From assembly GCA_965261545.1 (NCBI GenBank), contig CBDHDF010000010.1, positions 128,001 to 192,000 of the forward strand: a stretch of 64,000 nt of DNA, read 5' to 3'. The notes below the pieces were generated by a model. That model did not search any database. It had not been told where the DNA came from and saw nothing but the letters and a program-made list of their open reading frames with translations. Shown one piece after another: positions 976 through 56,907 of the stretch (position 1 is the stretch's first letter; each line of letters starts with the position of its first letter). The translations under genes were made by a program, and so were the position numbers. This DNA is from Bdellovibrionales bacterium. Its GTDB lineage: Bacteria > Bdellovibrionota > Bdellovibrionia > Bdellovibrionales > UBA1609.

Positions 976-1360
976 AATGTTCCAAAGACATAAATGACTG
1001 ATTTTATTGGATATTTAATTTTGAGATATGGACCATAAATAGGTCATGGCCCAAAATATTGAGTTAATTTCATCGAAGCGAAGTAAAAGTAAAGAACAGT
1101 GGACCACTTTCGGTCTATTTAAAATATGTGATGAATGATTTAAGGGATTTAGACAAACCCACAAGTGGGACAGAATAATAAAGTGATGGATTATTTGGGA
1201 CTGTAAAAATAATTGTGTAACTGCAATTTTTTTCTTAAATCTTAAAGCCACTTATGTGGCTCCACTCCTGGTAAAAAGCACAGTCCCATATTATTCGTCA
1301 ATGTATAATTGACATTTTTTCCTTCAAGCGATTTTGTCAGTCACAATGCATTATAAGTTA

Positions 1361-1498
1361 ATGGGGAGGTGGACATCTTCGCTGGTCTATATAATTGGCC
1401 TCTTTAGTTACTCTGGACTTTTGATTGTATTATGGAGCCGTAATGGGATCATATCAGAACTGGAAAGAACTCAAATAAATAATTATCATCTTGGTTGA
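1361..1498 (+). CDS. Small hydrophobic 45-aa ORF in the IS256 non-coding tail
   Basis: MGRWTSSLVYIIGLFSYSGLLIVLWSRNGIISELERTQINNYHLG*, with one TM-like stretch. Also present in IS256 copy 2. No clear RBS. Confidence 0.3.
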   Translation: MGRWTSSLVYIIGLFSYSGLLIVLWSRNGIISELERTQINNYHLG

Positions 1499-1809
1499 AA
1501 AAAAATCAGCAATGGCTCTCTCAAAAAAATGGAAATTCCAATCTCATCAAAGGGTTCATGTGTTTAGGTTCCCATACTATATTACCCCCTTTTTTTTATT
1601 TTTTTTAACTTAGGATATTCGAGAAATACCAGAATTGGGATGAAATATGAAAAAAAATGGAAACCCAAATCTGCACCAAGAGGGCATGTATTTAGGTTCC
1701 CATACTATATTACCCTAACCATAGTCTCGGTATTCCAGTACTTCTGTCAACGCCTTAGAGGGGCTTTTAAGCCCCCTTATAAGGCAGGTGGTGGACCTTA
1801 TTAAAAAAC

Positions 1810-3638
1810 TTAGTTGTCAAAACGGTCACCGTATTCAATGGCAAACCTGTTCATGGCTGGCTTCCAGTTGTGTAATGGTCGTGTCCATCGCTTAGAGGCC
1901 ATTTTTATCGCTAAATATACAACTTTTAAAGCCGACCGATCACTGGGAAATATCTTACGATTTCTGATCGCCTTGCGGATCACGCTATTTAACGACTCTA
2001 TGGCGTTTGTGGTATAAAAAATCTTTCTGATTTCATCCGGATAATCGAAAATAGTGATGAGATTGTCCCAATTCCTACGCCAAGACTTTTCAATATTCGG
2101 ATACTTTGAAGACCACTTGGTACAAAATTCCTCAAGGGCCTTTTCAGCTTCTGTCAGAGTCGTAGAGCCATAAATGGACTTGAGGTCTTGGGCGACAGCT
2201 TTCATATCCTTGGAAGGAACATAGCGAAGGGAATTGCGGACCATATGGACAATGCACAGTTGCACTTTAGACTTGGGAAAAGCCGCTGAAATGGCTTGAG
2301 GAAAACCTGTAAGACCATCTACAGAAAATATAAATACATCTTTCAACCCTCGATTTTGCAGCTCAGTCAAAACACTCAACCAAAACTTTGAACCCTCATT
2401 TTCAGAAATCCATAGGCCCAACAAGTCTTTCTGACCCTCCTCTGTAATACCAAGAGCTAGGTAAATCGCCTTATTAATAACTCTCTTGTCTTGATGGACC
2501 TTCACCACGATACAGTCCAAAAATACGATAGGGTAAGTGCTATCCAAGGGGCGGTTCTGCCAAGCCGTAACTTCATCAATAACAGCATCCGTCACGTTGG
2601 CTATCACTGAGTGGGATATCTCTGCACCATGGTAGAGGTCTTTGATAGCTCCTTGAATATCCCTGGTCGTCATTCCCCTCGCATAGAGGGTCAGGATACT
2701 GTCTTCAAAGCCCTCAAGACGAGTCTTACCCTTGGGAATGACTTGAGGTTCAAAGGAGGCACTTCGGTCACGGGGGACCTGAAGCTCCACCTCGCCTTTC
2801 TCTCCCTTTATGGTCTTTCTACTGTAACCATTGCGAGTGTTGGATTTGCGGGTCTCAGACTTCTCATGCCTCTCATAACCTAGGTGATCGTCCATTTCCG
2901 CATTAAGGGCCGTCTCTAAAACAACCTTCATCAGTTGACCCGTTATGTCGGATAAATCCTTTTGGGTCTTGACGTTCTTCGCTAGTTCCTTGCCTATCGA
3001 GTAGGCAGTGGGAACTTCCCCCACTGCCCCTCACAGAACCGTGCTTGAAAGTCTCCCCTCACACGGCTCCTATGATTTTCCGTTTCATTAGGCTCCTCCT
3101 CAGCATAACCAAGTTGGCCTGACTACTTCCATAAATCATGTGACCCCTTCGCTCCATTCTCATTACAAGAACTTCATCACTACTACGAATCACTCTGCCC
3201 CTGGTTGGTGGCATCGGTATTTAGCACTTCGGGGGTCTCCCTTATAGCGTTTCCCTTATCATCCACCAGCAGGTTCCCACGTTCCGATACGAAGCCTGTA
3301 CTAGGTTCATGCCCCCTATACACCGCACGCCGTCTAGATCGGTCATCAGGCTTCCTCTAGACTTATCCCGACGGAGACAACCTTCCTTCGGTTTTGACGC
3401 GACTGTTAATCTTTCGATGCGTCGTCGGTGGGTTTGCTTTCGCTCATCTCCCTAGTACTTACATGACCGTTTACTACGGCCTTTTCCTTGCTCGCTCACT
3501 ACAAGGGCCTTGCCTCCCATGCAGCAGCAAGGTTGTTTGCACTCAAATCCTGAAATCCGAGTGCGGAGGACCTACCTCCATCTTCACATCAGCATGTCAC
3601 CTCCGTGACTTCGTGGCACACATTGTCTTGATATCCAT
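1810..3638 (-). CDS. IS256-family transposase split by an intron in codon 6 (exons 3622-3638 and 1810-2995)
   Basis: Joining ATGGATATCAAGACAAT and AGGCAAGG reproduces the intact 400-aa copy at 55092-56294, with IS256 motifs RNGY, PRDR, SVDGL, QLCIVH and TTNAIES. Confidence 0.92.
2996..3621 (-). ncRNA. ORF-less group II intron ribozyme (626 nt)
   Basis: 5' end GTGTGCC; domain V GAGCCGTGTGAGGGGAGACTTTCAAGCACGGTTC; DVI hairpin ending ...CTCGAT. The EBS1-like loop GTTGTC (3376-3381) pairs with the exon end GACAAT. Boundaries are fixed by the empty allele in IS256 copy 2. Confidence 0.92.
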
Positions 3639-4108
3639 TCTGCCTTCTCCTTTCAAGATGATAGTTCATCCTAATATGATTCGGCAGTTACACAAAATAG
3701 TTTACAGGCTCGATTATTTTGTCATTTATTACAATAAAATATTAAACGATAACCCAAAATCTAGAAATTTTTCTTATTTTTTTATGATTTTTTATTAATG
3801 AACTCGACGGAAAACCATGAGAGTCGGAAATTCAAAATGAGTTATATTAAAAGTTTAGAAAAATCCTCTCTTGTATCTCACAATCATAATTGCAATAGCA
3901 CCTTGAGTTTGGCTTTCATTGGTAATCATAGCTCTCTGGATTCCTGTTTCAAGGGGTGATCTATTCAGTCGACATAGAGATTGGAGCCCTCATTGCCTAC
4001 TGTTTAAGAAATAGGAAGCCTAGCATCCAAGCTAGTGAGCATGAGGAAGCCTTCTAAAGGCTTTCTAAAAAAAACAAAACTGGGTTTAAGCTATCATCGG
4101 AAAATACT

Positions 4109-6163
4109 TTAACCACCATCATCGAGTCCATCGTCACTAATACTCCAACTACGATCTATGAGGGCGCTCCGTGCATCAATAGCACTATTATTGTATTTTG
4201 AATTTCCACCATGGAATGAGATATTATTCTGTTGTGAGGTGGTGTGGATTTGGTTGAGCAGGCTGCTGTATATTCCCGTGGGAAGGGTGAGTCCTTCAAG
4301 CATGCTACTCATGTCTGTGACACTAAGGAAATTCCATTGAGTCATATCGGGTTGAGCCATTGGGGCTTGCCTAAACATAGAACTCATGTTTGTGACATTG
4401 GAGACATCCCAACCGCTGACGTCGGGATTGGCAACATCTGCCCCATCAAACATATAACTCATGTTTGTGACATTGGAGACATCCCAACCGCTGACATCGG
4501 GATTGACAACATCTGCCTCATCAAACATATGACCCATGTTTGTGACATTGGAGACATCCCAATCGCTGACATCGGGATTGGCAACATCTGCCAAATAAAA
4601 CATATAACTCATATTTGTGACCTTGGATGTATCCCAGCGACTCACATCGAGATCGGCCATATTTGCATCGGAAAACATAAAGTTCATATTTGTGACCTTG
4701 GATGTATCCCAGCGACTCACATCGAGATCGGCCATATTTGCATCGTAAAACATATAACTCATATTTGTGACCTTGGATGTATCCCAACCGCTGACGTCGG
4801 GACTAGCAACATCTGCCCCACCAAACATATAACTCATATTTGTGACCTTGGATGTATCCCAACCGCTGACGTCGGGATTGGCAACATCTGCCTCATAAAA
4901 CATATAACTCATATTTGTGACCTTGGATGTATCCCAACCGCTTACGTCGGGATTGGCAACAGATGCCTCAGAAAACATAGAGTTCATGTTTGTGACATTG
5001 GAGACATCCCAATCGCTGACATCGGGATTGGCAGCTTCTGCATCATAAAACATGCTACTCATATCTGTAACCCCAGAAACATTTCCTCCACTTAGATACT
5101 CAAGGGCTTCGCATTGCCTAAAGGCTCCTTTTAAACTCCGCCACCCCACATCACCAAGATCTTTCACAAAGATGAGTTTTAATCTATGTGCTGTAGCCTC
5201 GCTATCGAAATTCCAAGCCTCAAGGGTCCCCGAAATGGTGACAGTGTAATCTCCAGCTTCGGCGTAAATATGAGTGATATCGCTGTCATCATGGGACGTG
5301 ATCTCACTGGAGGAATCATCCCCCCAATCCACAGTAAAATTAGACTTGTATCCTGAGGGCAAGGGGAGAGCGATGGCTTCACTTGTTTGAGAAGTTCTCC
5401 AAACAGAGACAAAGAAAGAGAACCCTCCATCACTGATACTCCACCCTCGTTCTTTTAAGAGTTGTCGGATATTTTCGGAACGGCTGTCGTACTTAGAGCT
5501 CCCCATATCCAATGTGAAATTTTCCTGGCTGGAGGTTTCATAAAGTCGCTGAAGGAGTGTGTTATAGACCCCTGTGGGAAGGGTGACTTCACTGAAAGTC
5601 TCATCCATCTTTGCCAAAAGAGCAAAATTCCATCCACTGAAGTCTATTTTCTTTATAGAAGTCACTCCTTTAAACATGCGATCCATGTTTGTGACATTGG
5701 AGATGTCTCCTCCTCCTACTTGGCGAAGGTTGCTGCAACCCTCAAAGGCTCCCTCTAAGTTGATCCACCCCATATTCCCTAAGTCGGTCACAGAAATGAG
5801 TTTGTCTTTGCTCCCACTGTTGTTGAAATACCAAGCCTCAAGCTCCCCCGAAATAGTGACGGTGTAGTCTCCAGACTCGGCATAGGTATGAGTGATATCG
5901 CTGTCATCATGGGATGTGATTTCACTAGAGGCACCATCACCCCAGTCCACAGTGAAATTATAATTATACCCTGATCGCAACGGAAGAGTGATGGACTCAT
6001 TTTCACTGGACAAACGCCACACAGAGATAAAGGAAGAAGCTGTCACAGAAGGAGCTTGCTTTGTATCACCACAGCCTAAAAGACTCGCCATGGTCAGGCC
6101 AACAGAGAGACCCATGGTGAGTAAAGGTAGGGTGCATCTTGTAAAAGTTTGTAATGGAGTCAA
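4109..6163 (-). CDS. Surface lipoprotein with two PKD-like (VDWGD) modules and BspA/DUF285-type 25-aa repeats
   Basis: Lipobox-like LLGC; about 10 repeats of WD(V/T)S(N/K)VTNMxxMF; AAGGAGGT RBS before a TTG start. Confidence 0.88.
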   Translation of the reverse strand: MTPLQTFTRCTLPLLTMGLSVGLTMASLLGCGDTKQAPSVTASSFISVWRLSSENESITLPLRSGYNYNFTVDWGDGASSEITSHDDSDITHTYAESGDYTVTISGELEAWYFNNSGSKDKLISVTDLGNMGWINLEGAFEGCSNLRQVGGGDISNVTNMDRMFKGVTSIKKIDFSGWNFALLAKMDETFSEVTLPTGVYNTLLQRLYETSSQENFTLDMGSSKYDSRSENIRQLLKERGWSISDGGFSFFVSVWRTSQTSEAIALPLPSGYKSNFTVDWGDDSSSEITSHDDSDITHIYAEAGDYTVTISGTLEAWNFDSEATAHRLKLIFVKDLGDVGWRSLKGAFRQCEALEYLSGGNVSGVTDMSSMFYDAEAANPDVSDWDVSNVTNMNSMFSEASVANPDVSGWDTSKVTNMSYMFYEADVANPDVSGWDTSKVTNMSYMFGGADVASPDVSGWDTSKVTNMSYMFYDANMADLDVSRWDTSKVTNMNFMFSDANMADLDVSRWDTSKVTNMSYMFYLADVANPDVSDWDVSNVTNMGHMFDEADVVNPDVSGWDVSNVTNMSYMFDGADVANPDVSGWDVSNVTNMSSMFRQAPMAQPDMTQWNFLSVTDMSSMLEGLTLPTGIYSSLLNQIHTTSQQNNISFHGGNSKYNNSAIDARSALIDRSWSISDDGLDDGG
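4345..5080 (-). repeat. 75-bp coding tandem repeats (about 10 units)
   Basis: tttgtgac(a/c)ttgga...atccca recurs every 75 bp. Confidence 0.9.
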
Positions 6164-27807: not shown

Positions 27808-28204
27808 TCGAGGTGAAGGGAGAACTATTGTCAGCTAGGCTGTGAAGCGGAAAAGGCTGCTCCCATCAGGCTAGTCGTAAACACCGAGGGGGATTGGATC
27901 ACAGGTGCTACAACAATGGTCAGCCTCACGGAGTAAATTTAGGTTCACTGCCGCACAGACGCAGCTTAGAAATCACAGCACCACCGAATTCCCACAAATG
28001 GCCTGGTTTAACCCGCCCATCGAGGATTATTCGGGTCTTGAGGGTTCATCGCAATACTGTGAAGAAATATCTTCTACACTTTTTTCCAACCAAGCCCGGA
28101 TGGGTTGGCACACCTTAGAGTCTTTAAAAAACCTGAAGGGGTAAACATTCACAAAAGTTGAAGTTGGGGTTACCCCCTCCGTAACTGGCTCGGACTTACA
28201 CCAA

Positions 28205-48251: not shown

Positions 48252-49047
48252 TTCGACCTCCTTGGTTAAAGATTGGAGGTCTTTATAGAACATCAATGAC
48301 GCTATGCTAAGGGGAATCAGTCATGCCAATCAGTGCGGGCAATGCCATGGTTCGCCGGGCGAACTGAGATAAGATAGGGGGTTAGAGTCCCCCGAGAGGA
48401 AGGTCAACCGACCACTTCTCTCCCCAAGCCGTGCGCGGTCGGCCGTGAGGCCGAAGCGATGTATCGGTAGGGGTGTGTGTGGGCCAAATAATTGAGCGTC
48501 GAAAATGCCGAACTCTGGAGTGCGGAGGCTGTCATGGTAGCCGAACGCAACATACCCACCAGCGCTATGGTGAGTTGGTGGGTAACTCCACGGCGTCGTA
48601 GAAACTGGCACATACATGAATCTTATCTCGGGACCTCGGGAGGTCTTTATTTAACCCCGTCATGTGCGACGGGCGACATGGGAAAGGAGGTAACCGTAAC
48701 CCATGAACGAAATAAAGAAATCGGATCCACTCATAGTAGCGATGAAGAGGACGAACAAAGGGCCTACAAGCCCAGCGGAGTCCTTGGAGCGAAGGGGTGG
48801 AACTGAAGGGAACTCAATCCGTCAAAGCATCTGCCGAACACAGAGTTGGGAAAAGGTGTCACAGGCGACGGAGCGAGTCCGTATAGCAGCAAAGAGAAAG
48901 GATGGTAAGCTCACTTGCTTGCTTCACCATGTATCTGTGGAAGCCCTCCACTTGGCTTACCTCTATTTGAATAGGGGAGCCAGTGCGGGAGTGGACCATT
49001 TAACATGGAAGGAGTATGGCGAGAACCTCGTGCAAAACCTGTTCGAT

Positions 49048-50682
49048 TTACATCGTCGGGTCCACACTACTCCCCGGACACAATGGCAAACTTTTGGAGG
49101 TTGGCACAACGTGTCGAACTACAATTTCACTTGCCTTAATGTTCACCTCAACCTCCTTCACCAGTAGCCTTACAATCTCCTTTTTTTGCTCAAAACTCAA
49201 TACCTTTAAATTGGCACTCACTTTTTTTTGGAATTCTTGGAGTTGATCTACAAGCTGTAGTTGTTGTCCTTCTTGCCTTTGCTCATACTCTAAAGATTGC
49301 TTTTCATTTTCAAGTTGCTTTATTTTTCCTCTTATTTTTTTTAATCGTGACTCTATTTCTGATAGATTTAGAGTTCCATTTTGATAAAGATCCAAGAGAC
49401 GTTCCTTTTCATGTGTTATTTGACGAATCTCCTGAGCCTTTTTTACAATTAATTTTTCCAATGATTGTTGTTCACCTTTTTGCTCATGAATTCTACTTGT
49501 ATACTCATCTATAACTGTCTGAGGATTTTCAAGTAATTTAACTGTTTGTTCCCAAACTAAGTCATCTAAAACTTCAACTCTTACGGGATGAGATGAGCAA
49601 ACTCTACCTTTAGCTGGCCACCTATAACCATCTTGTCCCATGCAGCGATAATAACAAAGCTTATACCTTGAGTGAGAAGCAGGTTTGCCATAGATCGAAT
49701 AACCACACTCTTTGCATCGTAAAAGACCACTTAACAAATACTCATATTTTTTATTATTCCGAGAGGAAAGTTTTTTGTTAGCTTCCAATTGGCTGGACGC
49801 ATCTTGAAAAGTTTTTGAAGAAATTATAGATGGAACGGGAATATATATCCAATCCTTTTTATTTCGATTGGAAGAACTTGATTTATGTTTTTTTGGATAA
49901 AAATTATTGTCTCTTGCGAACTTGGTTGGACGCAACCTTTCTACCTTGATAGTCTTTCTAAAAGCAGCTTGTCCATAATAAGCGGGATTTTTAAGCATAC
50001 ACAAGATAGTTGAACGCCCCCAAATACCTTGTTGTCTTCTAGTAGGCACCCCCCTTATATTTAATTCCTTTGCAATTGCTCTAATACTTAGTTTGTTTCG
50101 GCAATACATTTGAAAAATATTTTTAACAACTTTAGACTCTTCTGGATGGATTTCATATCGTGCGTCAGCGGAGTCTGTTTTCAGAATATATATATAACCA
50201 TAGGGGGCTCCACATAAAACGCTAACAAAGCCCTTAGAAGCCTTTTGAAGTTTACCCCTTCGACTTCTTTCCATAATTTTTTCTCTTTCATATTCTGAAA
50301 TGACTCCTTGTATTTGTAGCAAAAGCTGATCTTCGGGTGAATTTGTAATATCTCTATTAGAAAAAATAATTTCAACACCTAGCCTCTGAAATTCTTCAAT
50401 TAGAATCAATTGATGGGCATATTTACGAGCTAATCTGTCTGGACATAACACAAGTACCTTTGTAACCTCCCCAGAAAAAGCTTTGTCGCGAAGAGAGTCT
50501 AAAGCAGGACGAACAAGGGTGGCGCCACTCACACCATTATCCATAAATATAAGATCCTCCTCTACACAAAAATTGTGTTCCTTAGCGAAATCGTGAAGAC
50601 TAGAAATCTGTGAATCAATGGTTCCCTCTTGAGCTTGTTTATCTGAGGACACTCGACAATAAAGAGCTACTGATGTTTCCAT
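49048..50682 (-). CDS. Large serine recombinase
   Basis: YCRVSS, DNGVSG..RPAL, DRLAR, YERE.I.ER, YGY, Zn ribbon CKEC...YYRC...C and a coiled coil. Confidence 0.95.
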   Translation of the reverse strand: METSVALYCRVSSDKQAQEGTIDSQISSLHDFAKEHNFCVEEDLIFMDNGVSGATLVRPALDSLRDKAFSGEVTKVLVLCPDRLARKYAHQLILIEEFQRLGVEIIFSNRDITNSPEDQLLLQIQGVISEYEREKIMERSRRGKLQKASKGFVSVLCGAPYGYIYILKTDSADARYEIHPEESKVVKNIFQMYCRNKLSIRAIAKELNIRGVPTRRQQGIWGRSTILCMLKNPAYYGQAAFRKTIKVERLRPTKFARDNNFYPKKHKSSSSNRNKKDWIYIPVPSIISSKTFQDASSQLEANKKLSSRNNKKYEYLLSGLLRCKECGYSIYGKPASHSRYKLCYYRCMGQDGYRWPAKGRVCSSHPVRVEVLDDLVWEQTVKLLENPQTVIDEYTSRIHEQKGEQQSLEKLIVKKAQEIRQITHEKERLLDLYQNGTLNLSEIESRLKKIRGKIKQLENEKQSLEYEQRQEGQQLQLVDQLQEFQKKVSANLKVLSFEQKKEIVRLLVKEVEVNIKASEIVVRHVVPTSKSLPLCPGSSVDPTM

Positions 50683-51005
50683 TTTTAACCTCCATTATTT
50701 TCTGTTGTTTTACTTTCTGCTTTAATTGTTTCTTTATTTTTGGAACAACAACTTCGTATGTCTGTTGAATCCGTGTGGTTTGGTCGCTTTGATAGACACT
50801 TTTTAGCTGAGCTGTCCATGGATTTTGATGTTTTGTTTGGTGGGCCATTATCATTCCTTTGACTATGGTTCGAAGCTAAATGGGAAGAATCCTCAGGTGG
50901 ATGCCAACGATAGTGAGCATATTTACGACCACTTGCATAAAGTGAATGATTATATATATTTATGGAAATTTCAATGGAAAAGTTGTCTATTGTGTCCGAG
51001 GAGTA
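49068..51005 (-). mobile_element. Minimal large-serine-recombinase integrative element
   Basis: Imperfect IRs tactcc(c/t)cggacacaat...actttt flank it. The core AC is duplicated at 49066-49067 and 51006-51007. Confidence 0.88.
50639..50854 (-). CDS. Small ORF upstream of the recombinase (possible directionality factor)
   Basis: Basic 71-aa ORF overlapping the recombinase start. Confidence 0.45.
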   Translation of the reverse strand: MIMAHQTKHQNPWTAQLKSVYQSDQTTRIQQTYEVVVPKIKKQLKQKVKQQKIMEVKNGNISSSLLSSVLR

Positions 51006-52199
51006 ACGGGTGCTTACAAAGGGCAACCTGTCTTGCGGGTAGAAATACCCAAGTCAGACGGGGGCACAAGACCCTTGGGTGTCCTGGCCTTGGAGGACAA
51101 GATTGTCCAGAAGGCCGTTGTAGACAGCATCCTCTCTCCCATCTACGAGGAACATTTCCTCGGTTATAGCTACGGATTCCGTCCAGGGCGTGGAGCGCAT
51201 AATGCGTTGGATGCTCTGGCTTACGGAATAGAGCGTAGAAAGATCAGCTACATATTGGATGCGGATATAAAATCCTACTTCGATAGCGTGGATAGAAAGA
51301 CTCTAATTCGCTTTCTAAAACACCTCATCGGAGATGAGAGACTCATTCGTCTCTTTGAAAAGTGGCTCAAGTGCGGAGTGCTATCTCAAGGCGTCTTAGA
51401 AGACACAGGGAGAGGGACCGTTCAAGGTTCAAATATTTCCCCTATCTTCGCCAACATATATTTACATTATGTGTTGGATTTATGGATGCAGAAATGGCGC
51501 AAGGACCATGCCACAGGGGACATGATATTTGTTCGCTACGCCGATGACTTTGTCGTAGGCTTTCAATACAAGGGGGAAGCTGAACGCTTCCTCAATGATC
51601 TGAAGCGCAGGCTTAAGGAGTTTTCTCTAGAAATACATCCGGGGAAAACTCGCCTCATAGAGTTCGGTCGATTTGCAAATGCAAATTGCCGCCGACGAGG
51701 TCTTGGTCACTCCGAGACTTTTGATTTCTTAGGATTCACTCACTTTTGTGTGCGCACGAGGAAAGGAGGCTTTAGGATAGGGCGTAAACCCATATCCAAG
51801 AGAGTCTGCCGGACCTTACAGCACCTGAAGCTGAGTCTGAGAAAACGAGTCTACACGAGGGACCTAGCGGAATGTGCAAAGTGGTTGGGTTTGGTCATCA
51901 AAGGCTGGCTCAATTATTTTGCGGTTCCAGGAAGTACGGTGTACCTACGAAAATTTATTTGCGCAATCAGGAGTGCTTGGATGAAAGCCATCCGACGACG
52001 CTCACAGCGTGGACGGAGATTCTCGTGGAAGAGGTTGGATAGAATGATTCGTCTATTCTGGCCTCGTATATCCATACGCCACCCGTGGCCAACAGATAGG
52101 TTCGCTATGCGGTACCACCTGAAGTAGGAGCCGGATGCTTTAACGAGCACGTCCGGATCTGTGCGGGGGGTGCGTGGCAACACGCATTCCTACCGTAAC

Positions 52200-52360
52200 C
52201 AACTGGTGCGGGCAATGCCATGCAACTGGTGAGGGTAATGCCATGCAACTGGTGCGGGCAATGCCATGCAACTGGTGAGGGTAATGCCATGCAACTGGTG
52301 CGGGTAATGCCATGCAATCGGTGCGGGTAATACCATGCAACTGGTGAGGGCAATGCCATG
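52200..52360. repeat. Seven tandem 23-bp repeats (IS21 left-end transposase-binding repeats)
   Basis: caactggtg(c/a)ggg(c/t)aatgccatg with no spacers; an eighth unit at 48327-48349. Confidence 0.9.
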
Positions 52361-52725
52361 CAATTTTACAATACTATCAGTTTAAGAAGAATCTACCCAC
52401 AAGATTGACTCTGCAAGTGCTTTGTATTGAACTTTTAAGGGATTGATGAAAATTTTAAGGCCTTAAACCGACAGTGTCGAGCTCAACCTATGACTAAATG
52501 CTGATTGAAGAGGGCACAAATTGACGCTGTGGGTATATAATCTACAGTATATCGTTAGCACACCCTTGATTGAAGTGAATCAGCATATGTCCAATATCTC
52601 GGGTTATAGACACCACCTCCTTTTCAAAAATTCTTAGGGTAGTATCAGTGGTGTCCTTCATGTATATCTGAGTGGCAACACACTGTACGAACTATGACAA
52701 TGGAGCCACCTAATCATTCTGGACT

Positions 52726-55018: not shown

Positions 55019-56907
55019 GAGCCTGTAAACTATTTTGTGTAACTGCCGAATCATATTAGGATGAACTATCATCCTGAAAGGAGAAGGCAGAATGGATATC
55101 AAGACAATAGGCAAGGAACTAGCGAAGAACGTCAAGACCCAAAAGGATTTATCCGACATAACGGGTCAACTGATGAAGGTTGTTTTAGAGACGGCCCTTA
55201 ATGCGGAAATGGACGATCACCTAGGTTATGAGAGGCATGAGAAGTCTGAGACCCGCAAATCCAACACTCGCAATGGTTACAGTAGAAAGACCATAAAGGG
55301 AGAGAAAGGCGAGGTGGAGCTTCAGGTCCCCCGTGACCGAAGTGCCTCCTTTGAACCTCAAGTCATTCCCAAGGGTAAGACTCGTCTTGAGGGCTTTGAA
55401 GACAGTATCCTGACCCTCTATGCGAGGGGAATGACGACCAGGGATATTCAAGGAGCTATCAAAGACCTCTACCATGGTGCAGAGATATCCCACTCAGTGA
55501 TAGCCAACGTGACGGATGCTGTTATTGATGAAGTTACGGCTTGGCAGAACCGCCCCTTGGATAGCACTTACCCTATCGTATTTTTGGACTGTATCGTGGT
55601 GAAGGTCCATCAAGACAAGAGAGTTATTAATAAGGCGATTTACCTAGCTCTTGGTATTACAGAGGAGGGTCAGAAAGACTTGTTGGGCCTATGGATTTCT
55701 GAAAATGAGGGTTCAAAGTTTTGGTTGAGTGTTTTGACTGAGCTGCAAAATCGAGGGTTGAAAGATGTATTTATATTTTCTGTAGATGGTCTTACAGGTT
55801 TTCCTCAAGCCATTTCAGCGGCTTTTCCCAAGTCTAAAGTGCAACTGTGCATTGTCCATATGGTCCGCAATTCCCTTCGCTATGTTCCTTCCAAGGATAT
55901 GAAAGCTGTCGCCCAAGACCTCAAGTCCATTTATGGCTCTACGACTCTGACAGAAGCTGAAAAGGCCCTTGAGGAATTTTGTACCAAGTGGTCTTCAAAG
56001 TATCCTAATATTGAAAAGTCTTGGCGTAGGAATTGGGACAATCTCATCACTATTTTCGATTATCCGGATGAAATCAGAAAGATTTTTTATACCACAAACG
56101 CCATAGAGTCGTTAAATAGCGTGATCCGCAAGGCGATCAGAAATCGTAAGATATTTCCCAGTGATCGGTCGGCTTTAAAAGTTGTATATTTAGCGATAAA
56201 AATGGCCTCTAAGCGATGGACACGACCATTACACAACTGGAAGCCAGCCATGAACAGGTTTGCCATTGAATACGGTGACCGTTTTGACAACTAAGTTTTT
56301 TAATAAGGTCCACCACCTGCCTTATAAGGGGGCTTAAAAGCCCCTCTAAGGCGTTGACAGAAGTACTGGAATACCGAGACTATGGTTAGGGTAATATAGT
56401 ATGGGAACCTAAATACATGCCCTCTTGGTGCAGATTTGGGTTCCCATTTTTTTTCATATTTCATCCCAATTCTGGTATTTCTCGAATATCCTAAGTTAAA
56501 AAAAATAAAAAAAAGGGGGTAATATAGTATGGGAACCTAAACACATGAACCCTTTGATGAGATTGGAATTTCCATTTTTTTGAGAGAGCCATTGCTGATT
56601 TTTTTTCAACCAAGATGATAATTATTTATTTGAGTTCTTTCCAGTTCTGATATGATCCCATTACGGCTCCATAATACAATCAAAAGTCCAGAGTAACTAA
56701 AGAGGCCAATTATATAGACCAGCGAAGATGTCCACCTCCCCATTAACTTATAATGCATTGTGACTGACAAAATCGCTTGAAGGAAAAAATGTCAATTATA
56801 CATTGACGAATAATATGGGACTGTGCTTTTTACCAGGAGTGGAGCCACATAAGTGGCTTTAAGATTTAAGAAAAAAATTGCAGTTACACAATTATTTTTA
56901 CAGTCCC
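55019..56907 (+). mobile_element. IS256-family element, copy 2 (intact)
   Basis: IRs as in copy 1; TSD TCCTAAGA at 55011-55018 and 56908-56915. Confidence 0.95.
55092..56294 (+). CDS. IS256-family transposase
   Basis: Full 400 aa with IS256 motifs. Confidence 0.95.
   Translation: MDIKTIGKELAKNVKTQKDLSDITGQLMKVVLETALNAEMDDHLGYERHEKSETRKSNTRNGYSRKTIKGEKGEVELQVPRDRSASFEPQVIPKGKTRLEGFEDSILTLYARGMTTRDIQGAIKDLYHGAEISHSVIANVTDAVIDEVTAWQNRPLDSTYPIVFLDCIVVKVHQDKRVINKAIYLALGITEEGQKDLLGLWISENEGSKFWLSVLTELQNRGLKDVFIFSVDGLTGFPQAISAAFPKSKVQLCIVHMVRNSLRYVPSKDMKAVAQDLKSIYGSTTLTEAEKALEEFCTKWSSKYPNIEKSWRRNWDNLITIFDYPDEIRKIFYTTNAIESLNSVIRKAIRNRKIFPSDRSALKVVYLAIKMASKRWTRPLHNWKPAMNRFAIEYGDRFDN

Follow-up and report, generated by a model that had tools for sequence, protein, structure and literature searches.

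The locus considered here raises the question of how a group II intron without an ORF came to lie within the transposase gene of an IS256-family element and of whether the intron and its host IS depend upon one another. It is found in a stretch of 64,000 nucleotides from a Bdellovibrionales genome (assembly GCA_965261545.1, contig CBDHDF010000010.1, positions 128,001 to 192,000), to which we refer as the window. A first-pass annotation, made from the sequence letters alone, described a complete ribozyme, inserted in the sense orientation in codon 6 of the transposase and needing a protein in trans, and proposed that it rides the IS and makes transposition depend upon splicing. The first part of this description is borne out by the analysis reported here and the second is not. 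The intron is very probably a non-autonomous class D retro-intron, which spread through retrohoming, helped in trans by a class D protein and guided to its targets by its EBS.

The position of the intron can be read directly from the sequence (Table 1). It begins with GUGUG and ends with AU, and the 2-nt ambiguity of its boundaries is settled by the GUGYG/AY ends together with EBS1. The 17 nt of the 5' exon, which starts with the ATG at 3638, and the sequence of the 3' exon have exact matches in a second IS256 element (copy 2), where they abut at 55108/55109, and each of the two exon sequences recurs once more within the window. Removal of the intron from the sequence yields the empty allele at 55092-55131 exactly, the insertion point lying after the second base of codon 6. 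This confirms both the placement of the intron and the empty target that had been proposed in copy 2. The joined exons encode a 400-aa Transposase_mut (Mutator-family) protein and residues 6-400 of the copy 2 transposase are the same as those of the window frame that ends at 1810, while the unspliced frame meets a stop after 13 codons. Since the joined exons equal the copy 2 coding sequence, splicing would restore the transposase exactly. The insertion is precise, comes without a target duplication and is accompanied by EBS/IBS pairing, as expected of a group II intron.

Table 1. Coordinates in the window of the intron, its functional parts, the exons and the two IS256 elements.
Feature	Position	Strand	Basis
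Group II intron of 626 nt without ORF, class D/IIB3, family A	2996..3621	minus	Rfam, ends, fold, alignments
5' exon, the initial 17 nt of the transposase coding sequence; IBS1 (-1 to -7), IBS2 (about -9 to -12)	3622..3638	minus	
3' exon, from the third base of codon 6 through to the stop; its initial A = IBS3	1810..2995	minus	
Loop that we take to be alpha (3553-3549), complementary to alpha' (3350-3346)	3546..3553	minus	sequence and predicted loops
EBS2, GAUU	3408..3411	minus	3/4 pair with the window exon; compensatory variant elsewhere
EBS1, 7 nt, Id3 loop	3375..3381	minus	predicted loop, register with the S. meliloti element, compensatory variants
EBS3, U, pairs with A or G at +1	3318..3318	minus	inferred from alignments
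Reduced DIV, about 68 nt: 6-bp basal stem, DIVa-like small inner hairpin, RBS 3101-3093, ATG 3088-3086	3072..3139	minus	
DV, 34 nt, AGC triad, AA bulge	3036..3069	minus	
DVI, bulged A at 3002 (seven bases from the intron end)	2998..3033	minus	
Intron-carrying IS256-family element, 8-bp duplication at 1189-1196 and 3712-3719	1197..3711	minus	IS features, joint 1188-3712 with 8 shared letters
IS256 copy 2, intron-free, own 8-bp duplication, empty target 55108/55109	55019..56907	plus	

Two Rfam models recognise the ribozyme, namely RF01999 (group-II-D1D4-2) at 3579-3462, with 88.5 bits, and RF00029 (DV/DVI) at 3071-2996, with 66 bits. The intron strand folds better than all of 20 shuffled sequences (z -4.2) and the six domains are present with covariation: in an alignment of 16 ORF-less relatives, picked because they carry both Rfam matches, 106 of the 150 consensus pairs over DI-DVI show compensatory change. 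The ends, the two models, the fold and the covariation agree in describing a complete ribozyme that can be folded into DI-DVI. The bulge of DV is usually AC; here it is AA, a form shared with 4 of 15 relatives. DVI contains an in-frame GTG (3024), which opens a 404-aa frame into the transposase. Translation from this codon, independent of splicing, is possible but we judge it to be weak because a gap of just 2 nt separates the SD-like run from the codon and the DVI helix takes in both.

DIV had been described as a relic of an RBS and a start codon that runs straight into DV. The relic is real, since its RBS and ATG align with the corresponding signals, RBS and start, of the annotated ltrA in an Azotobacter plasmid intron. 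The description is too austere in its other part, as a stem and a hairpin are kept and 16 nt separate the ATG from DV. Folded alone, DIV does no better than its shuffles (z 0.16). A promoter and terminator scan gave results at the level of chance, and GC skew within the window flips sign several times, so that it offers no basis for judging a replication-strand bias.

An element on pSymA of Sinorhizobium meliloti 1021 also matches RF01999 and aligns colinearly with the window intron over DI-DIII, with EBS1 in register; on the strength of this shared model and alignment the intron is assigned to class D/IIB3 and is RmInt1-like. The record of the pSymA element is unannotated and we take it to be RmInt1 from its host, its 419-aa frame and its target. 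The size of the RmInt1 protein is given as 419 aa in PMC4615759 and the naming of class D/IIB3 follows PMC3552965. DIV of the window intron does not encode the RT/maturase, lacking an endonuclease domain, of class D, the ORF having been deleted with the RBS and ATG left behind, and the class assignment is made from the RNA and from the ORFs of the nearest ORF-bearing relatives. Introns of class C/IIC have a shortened DV with a CGC triad, no EBS2 and insert after hairpins. Such a reading is ruled out here by the 34-nt DV with AGC, by an EBS2 that covaries with the target and by sites that are defined by their sequence.

The pairing of EBS1 with the end of the exon, from which it had been argued that the intron likely homed to this site, holds at all seven positions, one of the pairs being G-U. 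The EBS1 common to most copies likewise pairs 7/7 at the IS256, L011 and L013 sites (L numbers are our labels for loci outside the window) and 6/7 at L001 and L009, the latter falling to 5/7 when the mutated EBS1 now present in the L009 copy is used. At L059, one of the seven 5' ends outside IS256, the exon has no match to the common EBS1 and the copy is truncated before its own. Two variant copies have a changed EBS1 that pairs 7/7 with their own exons and, in one of these, EBS2 has changed in step with IBS2. IBS2 reads ATC at -11 to -9 in four of five sites and is shifted by one in the fifth. The EBS3 column varies with the first base of the 3' exon in most rows of the alignment, with a miss at L013, where the base at +1 is C. 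This covariation with different targets, together with the full pairing in the window, is what would be expected had the intron homed to the IS256 site. A U at EBS3 would also pair with G1 of the intron itself and thereby explain the copies found head-to-tail; the same combination has been reported for RmInt2 (PMC4615759).

The search of this genome for other copies returned 36 matches, with all 40 of 40 candidates scored, of which 10 are full-length and eight of these reach the top score. An exact search found 17 intron 5' ends, eight following the IS256 exon, two lying head-to-tail after another copy (at two loci) and seven elsewhere. At least four non-IS256 sites have been used. Empty alleles reveal precise insertion at three targets, which are IS256, a DDE transposase (presumably IS1634-like) and a third that we take to be an IS3-like element. 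Many of the copies are already interrupted or deleted. The family is thus multi-copy, ORF-less and placed at EBS-matching sites, as are the non-autonomous introns of the TeI3 type. A second ORF-less class D family, B, is 71% identical to the first and has four full copies; it is found at L053:5025-5671, L054, L062 and L063, with its own set of EBS and a position at or near the ends of IS elements. L056 is a chimera of the two without an ORF, joining DI of family B to DII-DVI of family A. At L057:2352-5106 an RF02005-type intron with an ORF, lying on the opposite strand, interrupts a family B mini-intron. At L007, 50 nt after the intron 3' end, the IS256 copy that carries the tandem introns is interrupted by an element of 253 bp, which has terminal repeats and a short duplication.

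The genome is very repeat-rich and the tandem copies could have been misassembled. The notion that the intron is an artefact of assembly, or a chance resemblance, is nonetheless so improbable as to be negligible: the E-values of the two Rfam matches are 1e-10 and 1e-16, the flanks are distinct at each intron locus and a near-identical intron occurs in contigs of two samples from two studies. For the intron itself it is refuted.

Both IS elements of the window have a Mutator-type DDE transposase, terminal repeats with TGTAAA and an 8-bp duplication, features that PMC7780238 describes for the IS256 family. Copies are about 1890 bp long, with some 600 bp of non-coding sequence after the transposase (1300-1810 and 56290-56880 in the window) that includes a 65-nt internal repeat; this non-coding part differs between haplotypes. 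The genome has 59 empty IS256 junctions against 9 occupied 3' junctions (9/68), and at least 35 intron-free full-length copies were found among the 40 of 157 candidates that were scored. IS256 transposition is therefore not splice-dependent, contrary to the first-pass annotation; splicing can matter only for the transposase mRNA of an invaded copy, such as that in the window.

The same occupancy bears on the proposal of one or a few entries into IS256, after which the intron-bearing IS would have transposed as a unit, with its transposase spliced or supplied in trans. The window copy speaks for this, as it has both ends and its target duplication and has received no other insert. In contigs of one related sample (three runs) the locus lacks the whole IS, and in a run from a second study the end of the IS adjoins the flank; presence in one related sample and absence from another indicates that the insertion of the IS is recent and polymorphic. 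Two occupied copies also have a rare IS SNP in common. We rejected this SNP as proof of riding, since it is present in four empty copies too. The occupied copies fall in four haplotypes (defined by three marker SNPs and one alignment), every one of which is also found empty, eight of the nine carry other insertions or truncations, leaving that of the window as the sole clean one seen, and empty sites greatly outnumber occupied ones. Taken with the use of sites outside IS256, these observations make riding as the main mode of spread unlikely, and at the level of the genome the claim that the intron rides the IS is not supported. The four haplotypes, each also empty, favour instead repeated homing into IS256. 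The same distribution over haplotypes could have arisen by gene conversion among the IS copies, and some riding within one haplotype may have occurred. A 626-nt skip in contigs of related samples represents the empty IS in DNA. The SNP at 3656 of the window copy is unique to it within the genome.

For RmInt1, the closest relative that has been studied, splicing from the host IS in vivo is reported to reach about 0.07% (PMC3035460), and the intron has been proposed to restrain that IS (PMC3035460, PMC4238363). By analogy, this points to a host IS copy that would be inactivated rather than controlled by a working splice switch. The likely consequence of invasion is near loss of the copy's own transposase, with little effect on the IS family.

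The explanation that we favour, retrohoming in trans, would proceed as follows. The RT/maturase ORF would have been lost by deletion just after its start codon, with the ribozyme and a small DIV being kept; the intron would retrohome with a class D protein in trans, its targets being picked by EBS1/2/3 pairing; and the start of the IS256 transposase would be the most used target because it is abundant, with other IS elements and other sites also used. With no ORF in the intron and an RBS/ATG relic left, a need for protein in trans, as first proposed, remains the natural reading. We infer both splicing of the window intron and its mobilisation in trans from sequence features.

A donor for such a protein can be recognised only in pieces. 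There are 30 RVT_1 matches in the genome, and a class D protein query finds a single close ORF, which is broken into five pieces, 44-69% identical each, spread over three loci. The first is cut on its 5' side by an IS21 element, the second (L071), truncated on its 5' side in DI, contains a stop and is divided by a recombinase element, and the third is a middle fragment; a short class D 3' remnant lies elsewhere. Every copy of the class D protein is thus broken in the assembly, which comprises 11 contigs and is 96.8% complete, and no closely related, intact ORF-containing donor of the TeI3 kind was found there. The broken class D intron is too distant for the mini-intron query to match it in DI-DIV. 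As the class D pieces are all broken, the likely donor is the class D intron before its breakage or a copy missing from the assembly; it was probably the genome's own class D intron. The search for an ORF-containing parent found no close one elsewhere: 60 related genomes gave one 41-nt DV-like match and nothing else, two lineage-specific motifs had no match in metagenome contigs, one such motif had none in viral contigs and the best plasmid matches to the intron are about 70% identical.

The state of the donor invites the suggestion that the family is a fossil, which spread while the class D donor was intact and today neither splices nor moves in vivo. The breakage of all class D ORF copies and the interruption or deletion of many mini-introns speak for it; against it stand eight copies that are identical by score, a ribozyme that has stayed intact and the chance that an intact donor is missing from the assembly. 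We regard it as a serious possibility, falling somewhat short of probable, and one that is compatible with retrohoming in trans, which concerns the mode of spread. A different source of help would be the intact RTs of RF02005-type introns (435-495-aa frames), which are the only intact group II RTs found, or else splicing free of a maturase, and it is true that the mini-introns are near-identical and multi-copy. These RTs are only 29-35% identical to the class D protein, however, most heterologous pairings among RmInt1 relatives lost mobility according to PMC4615759 and the broken class D donor suffices historically, so we hold such help to be improbable.

The window contains one RF02005 intron with an ORF (48384-52200, plus strand), whose RT frame is split by a 1.9-kb serine-recombinase element. 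Eight near-identical copies of the RT occur genome-wide, part of them in tandem, and the class D ORF at L071 is divided by this recombinase element too. At L058:4093-4260 an RF02005-type intron begins right at the 3' end of a broken class D intron, with no exon between them.

Several parts of this arrangement have precedents in better known systems. RmInt1 of S. meliloti, in ISRm2011-2 (PMC3035460, PMC4238363, PMC5894124), resembles the window intron in its RNA class, Rfam model and colinear DI-DIII and in its sense insertion in the transposase gene of a multi-copy IS, and its protein can act in trans; it encodes that protein of 419 aa and targets an IS630-family element, whereas the window intron is ORF-less and inserts into IS256 and several further sites. 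RmInt2, from strain GR4 of S. meliloti (PMC4615759), is likewise a class D intron with a U at EBS3 and head-to-tail copies, imperfect EBS2 pairing and IS targets, but is autonomous and targets the inverted repeats of IS elements, whereas in the present genome that kind of position, at IS ends, belongs to the sister family B. TeI3 of Thermosynechococcus elongatus shares the loss of the ORF by deletion and families with diverged EBS, having 17 ORF-less copies mobilised by proteins of ORF-containing relatives and one family that always occupies the same site in an IS200-family element (PMC2882425). It differs in being IIB1/CL with intact donors, 85-100% identical, in the genome, whereas here the class is D and the donor is distant and broken. 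IS-targeting class D introns and trans-mobilised ORF-less introns are therefore known already, and a single insertion of this kind is ordinary. An IStron, in which a group I intron contains an IS that moves the unit, is alike in combining a ribozyme and an IS in one unit. The present case is that of a group II intron inside an IS, with 59 of 68 IS sites empty.

Compact introns of the same type are found well beyond this genome. An exact scan of GTDB for the DIII and DV motifs, 68-98 nt apart, gave at least 116 stretches. From those with about 3 kb of sequence 35 loci were tested, and 23 of these, in 19 genomes from several phyla, have RF01999 some 600 nt from DV, the arrangement of the compact ORF-less type; the others comprise seven with DV only, three without a match and two nested arrangements. 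Another such compact intron lies on a Methylomonas plasmid. Nested or adjacent group II introns surround ORF-less class D copies at the GTDB loci L092, L145, L097 and L090. Bacterial ORF-less group II introns have been called rare and nearly always accompanied by related ORF-containing introns (2015 review, PMC4424553); the scan, with its 116 or more motif stretches and 23 of 35 compact RF01999-type loci, suggests that the ORF-less class D type may be undercounted. In mainly open-access literature we found no description of a natural ORF-less class D family or of a group II intron in IS256, though supplementary intron tables may list some.

It is likely that these introns form a cross-phylum, largely uncatalogued family of about 600-650 nt, non-autonomous and behaving like bacterial SINEs. 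The further idea that this SINE-like family is still retrohoming here, by means of the RT of another intron class and with no intact class D protein left, is one to which we give little credence. The natural 626-nt class D ribozyme, its natural EBS variants and the target pair occur together in one genome, which makes for a convenient test both of maturase distance in trans and of the damping of IS elements by introns. A modest further interest comes from an ORF-less class D family that seems to be undercounted and from the failure to find an intact donor.

Other features of the window lie apart from the intron. The minus strand at 4109-6163 encodes a protein of 684 aa, in which PKD and DUF285 domains are recognised and which has a 75-bp tandem repeat. 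At 550-905 a 69-nt motif, itself containing a palindrome, is present in three spaced copies, and a 170-aa ORF lies downstream of them. One CRISPR-DR4-like repeat, scoring at the gathering threshold, occurs at 27943-27972, with no array seen. An array of 23-bp tandem repeats occupies 52177-52386, and an identical-looking unit stands just before the RF02005 intron, at about 48330.
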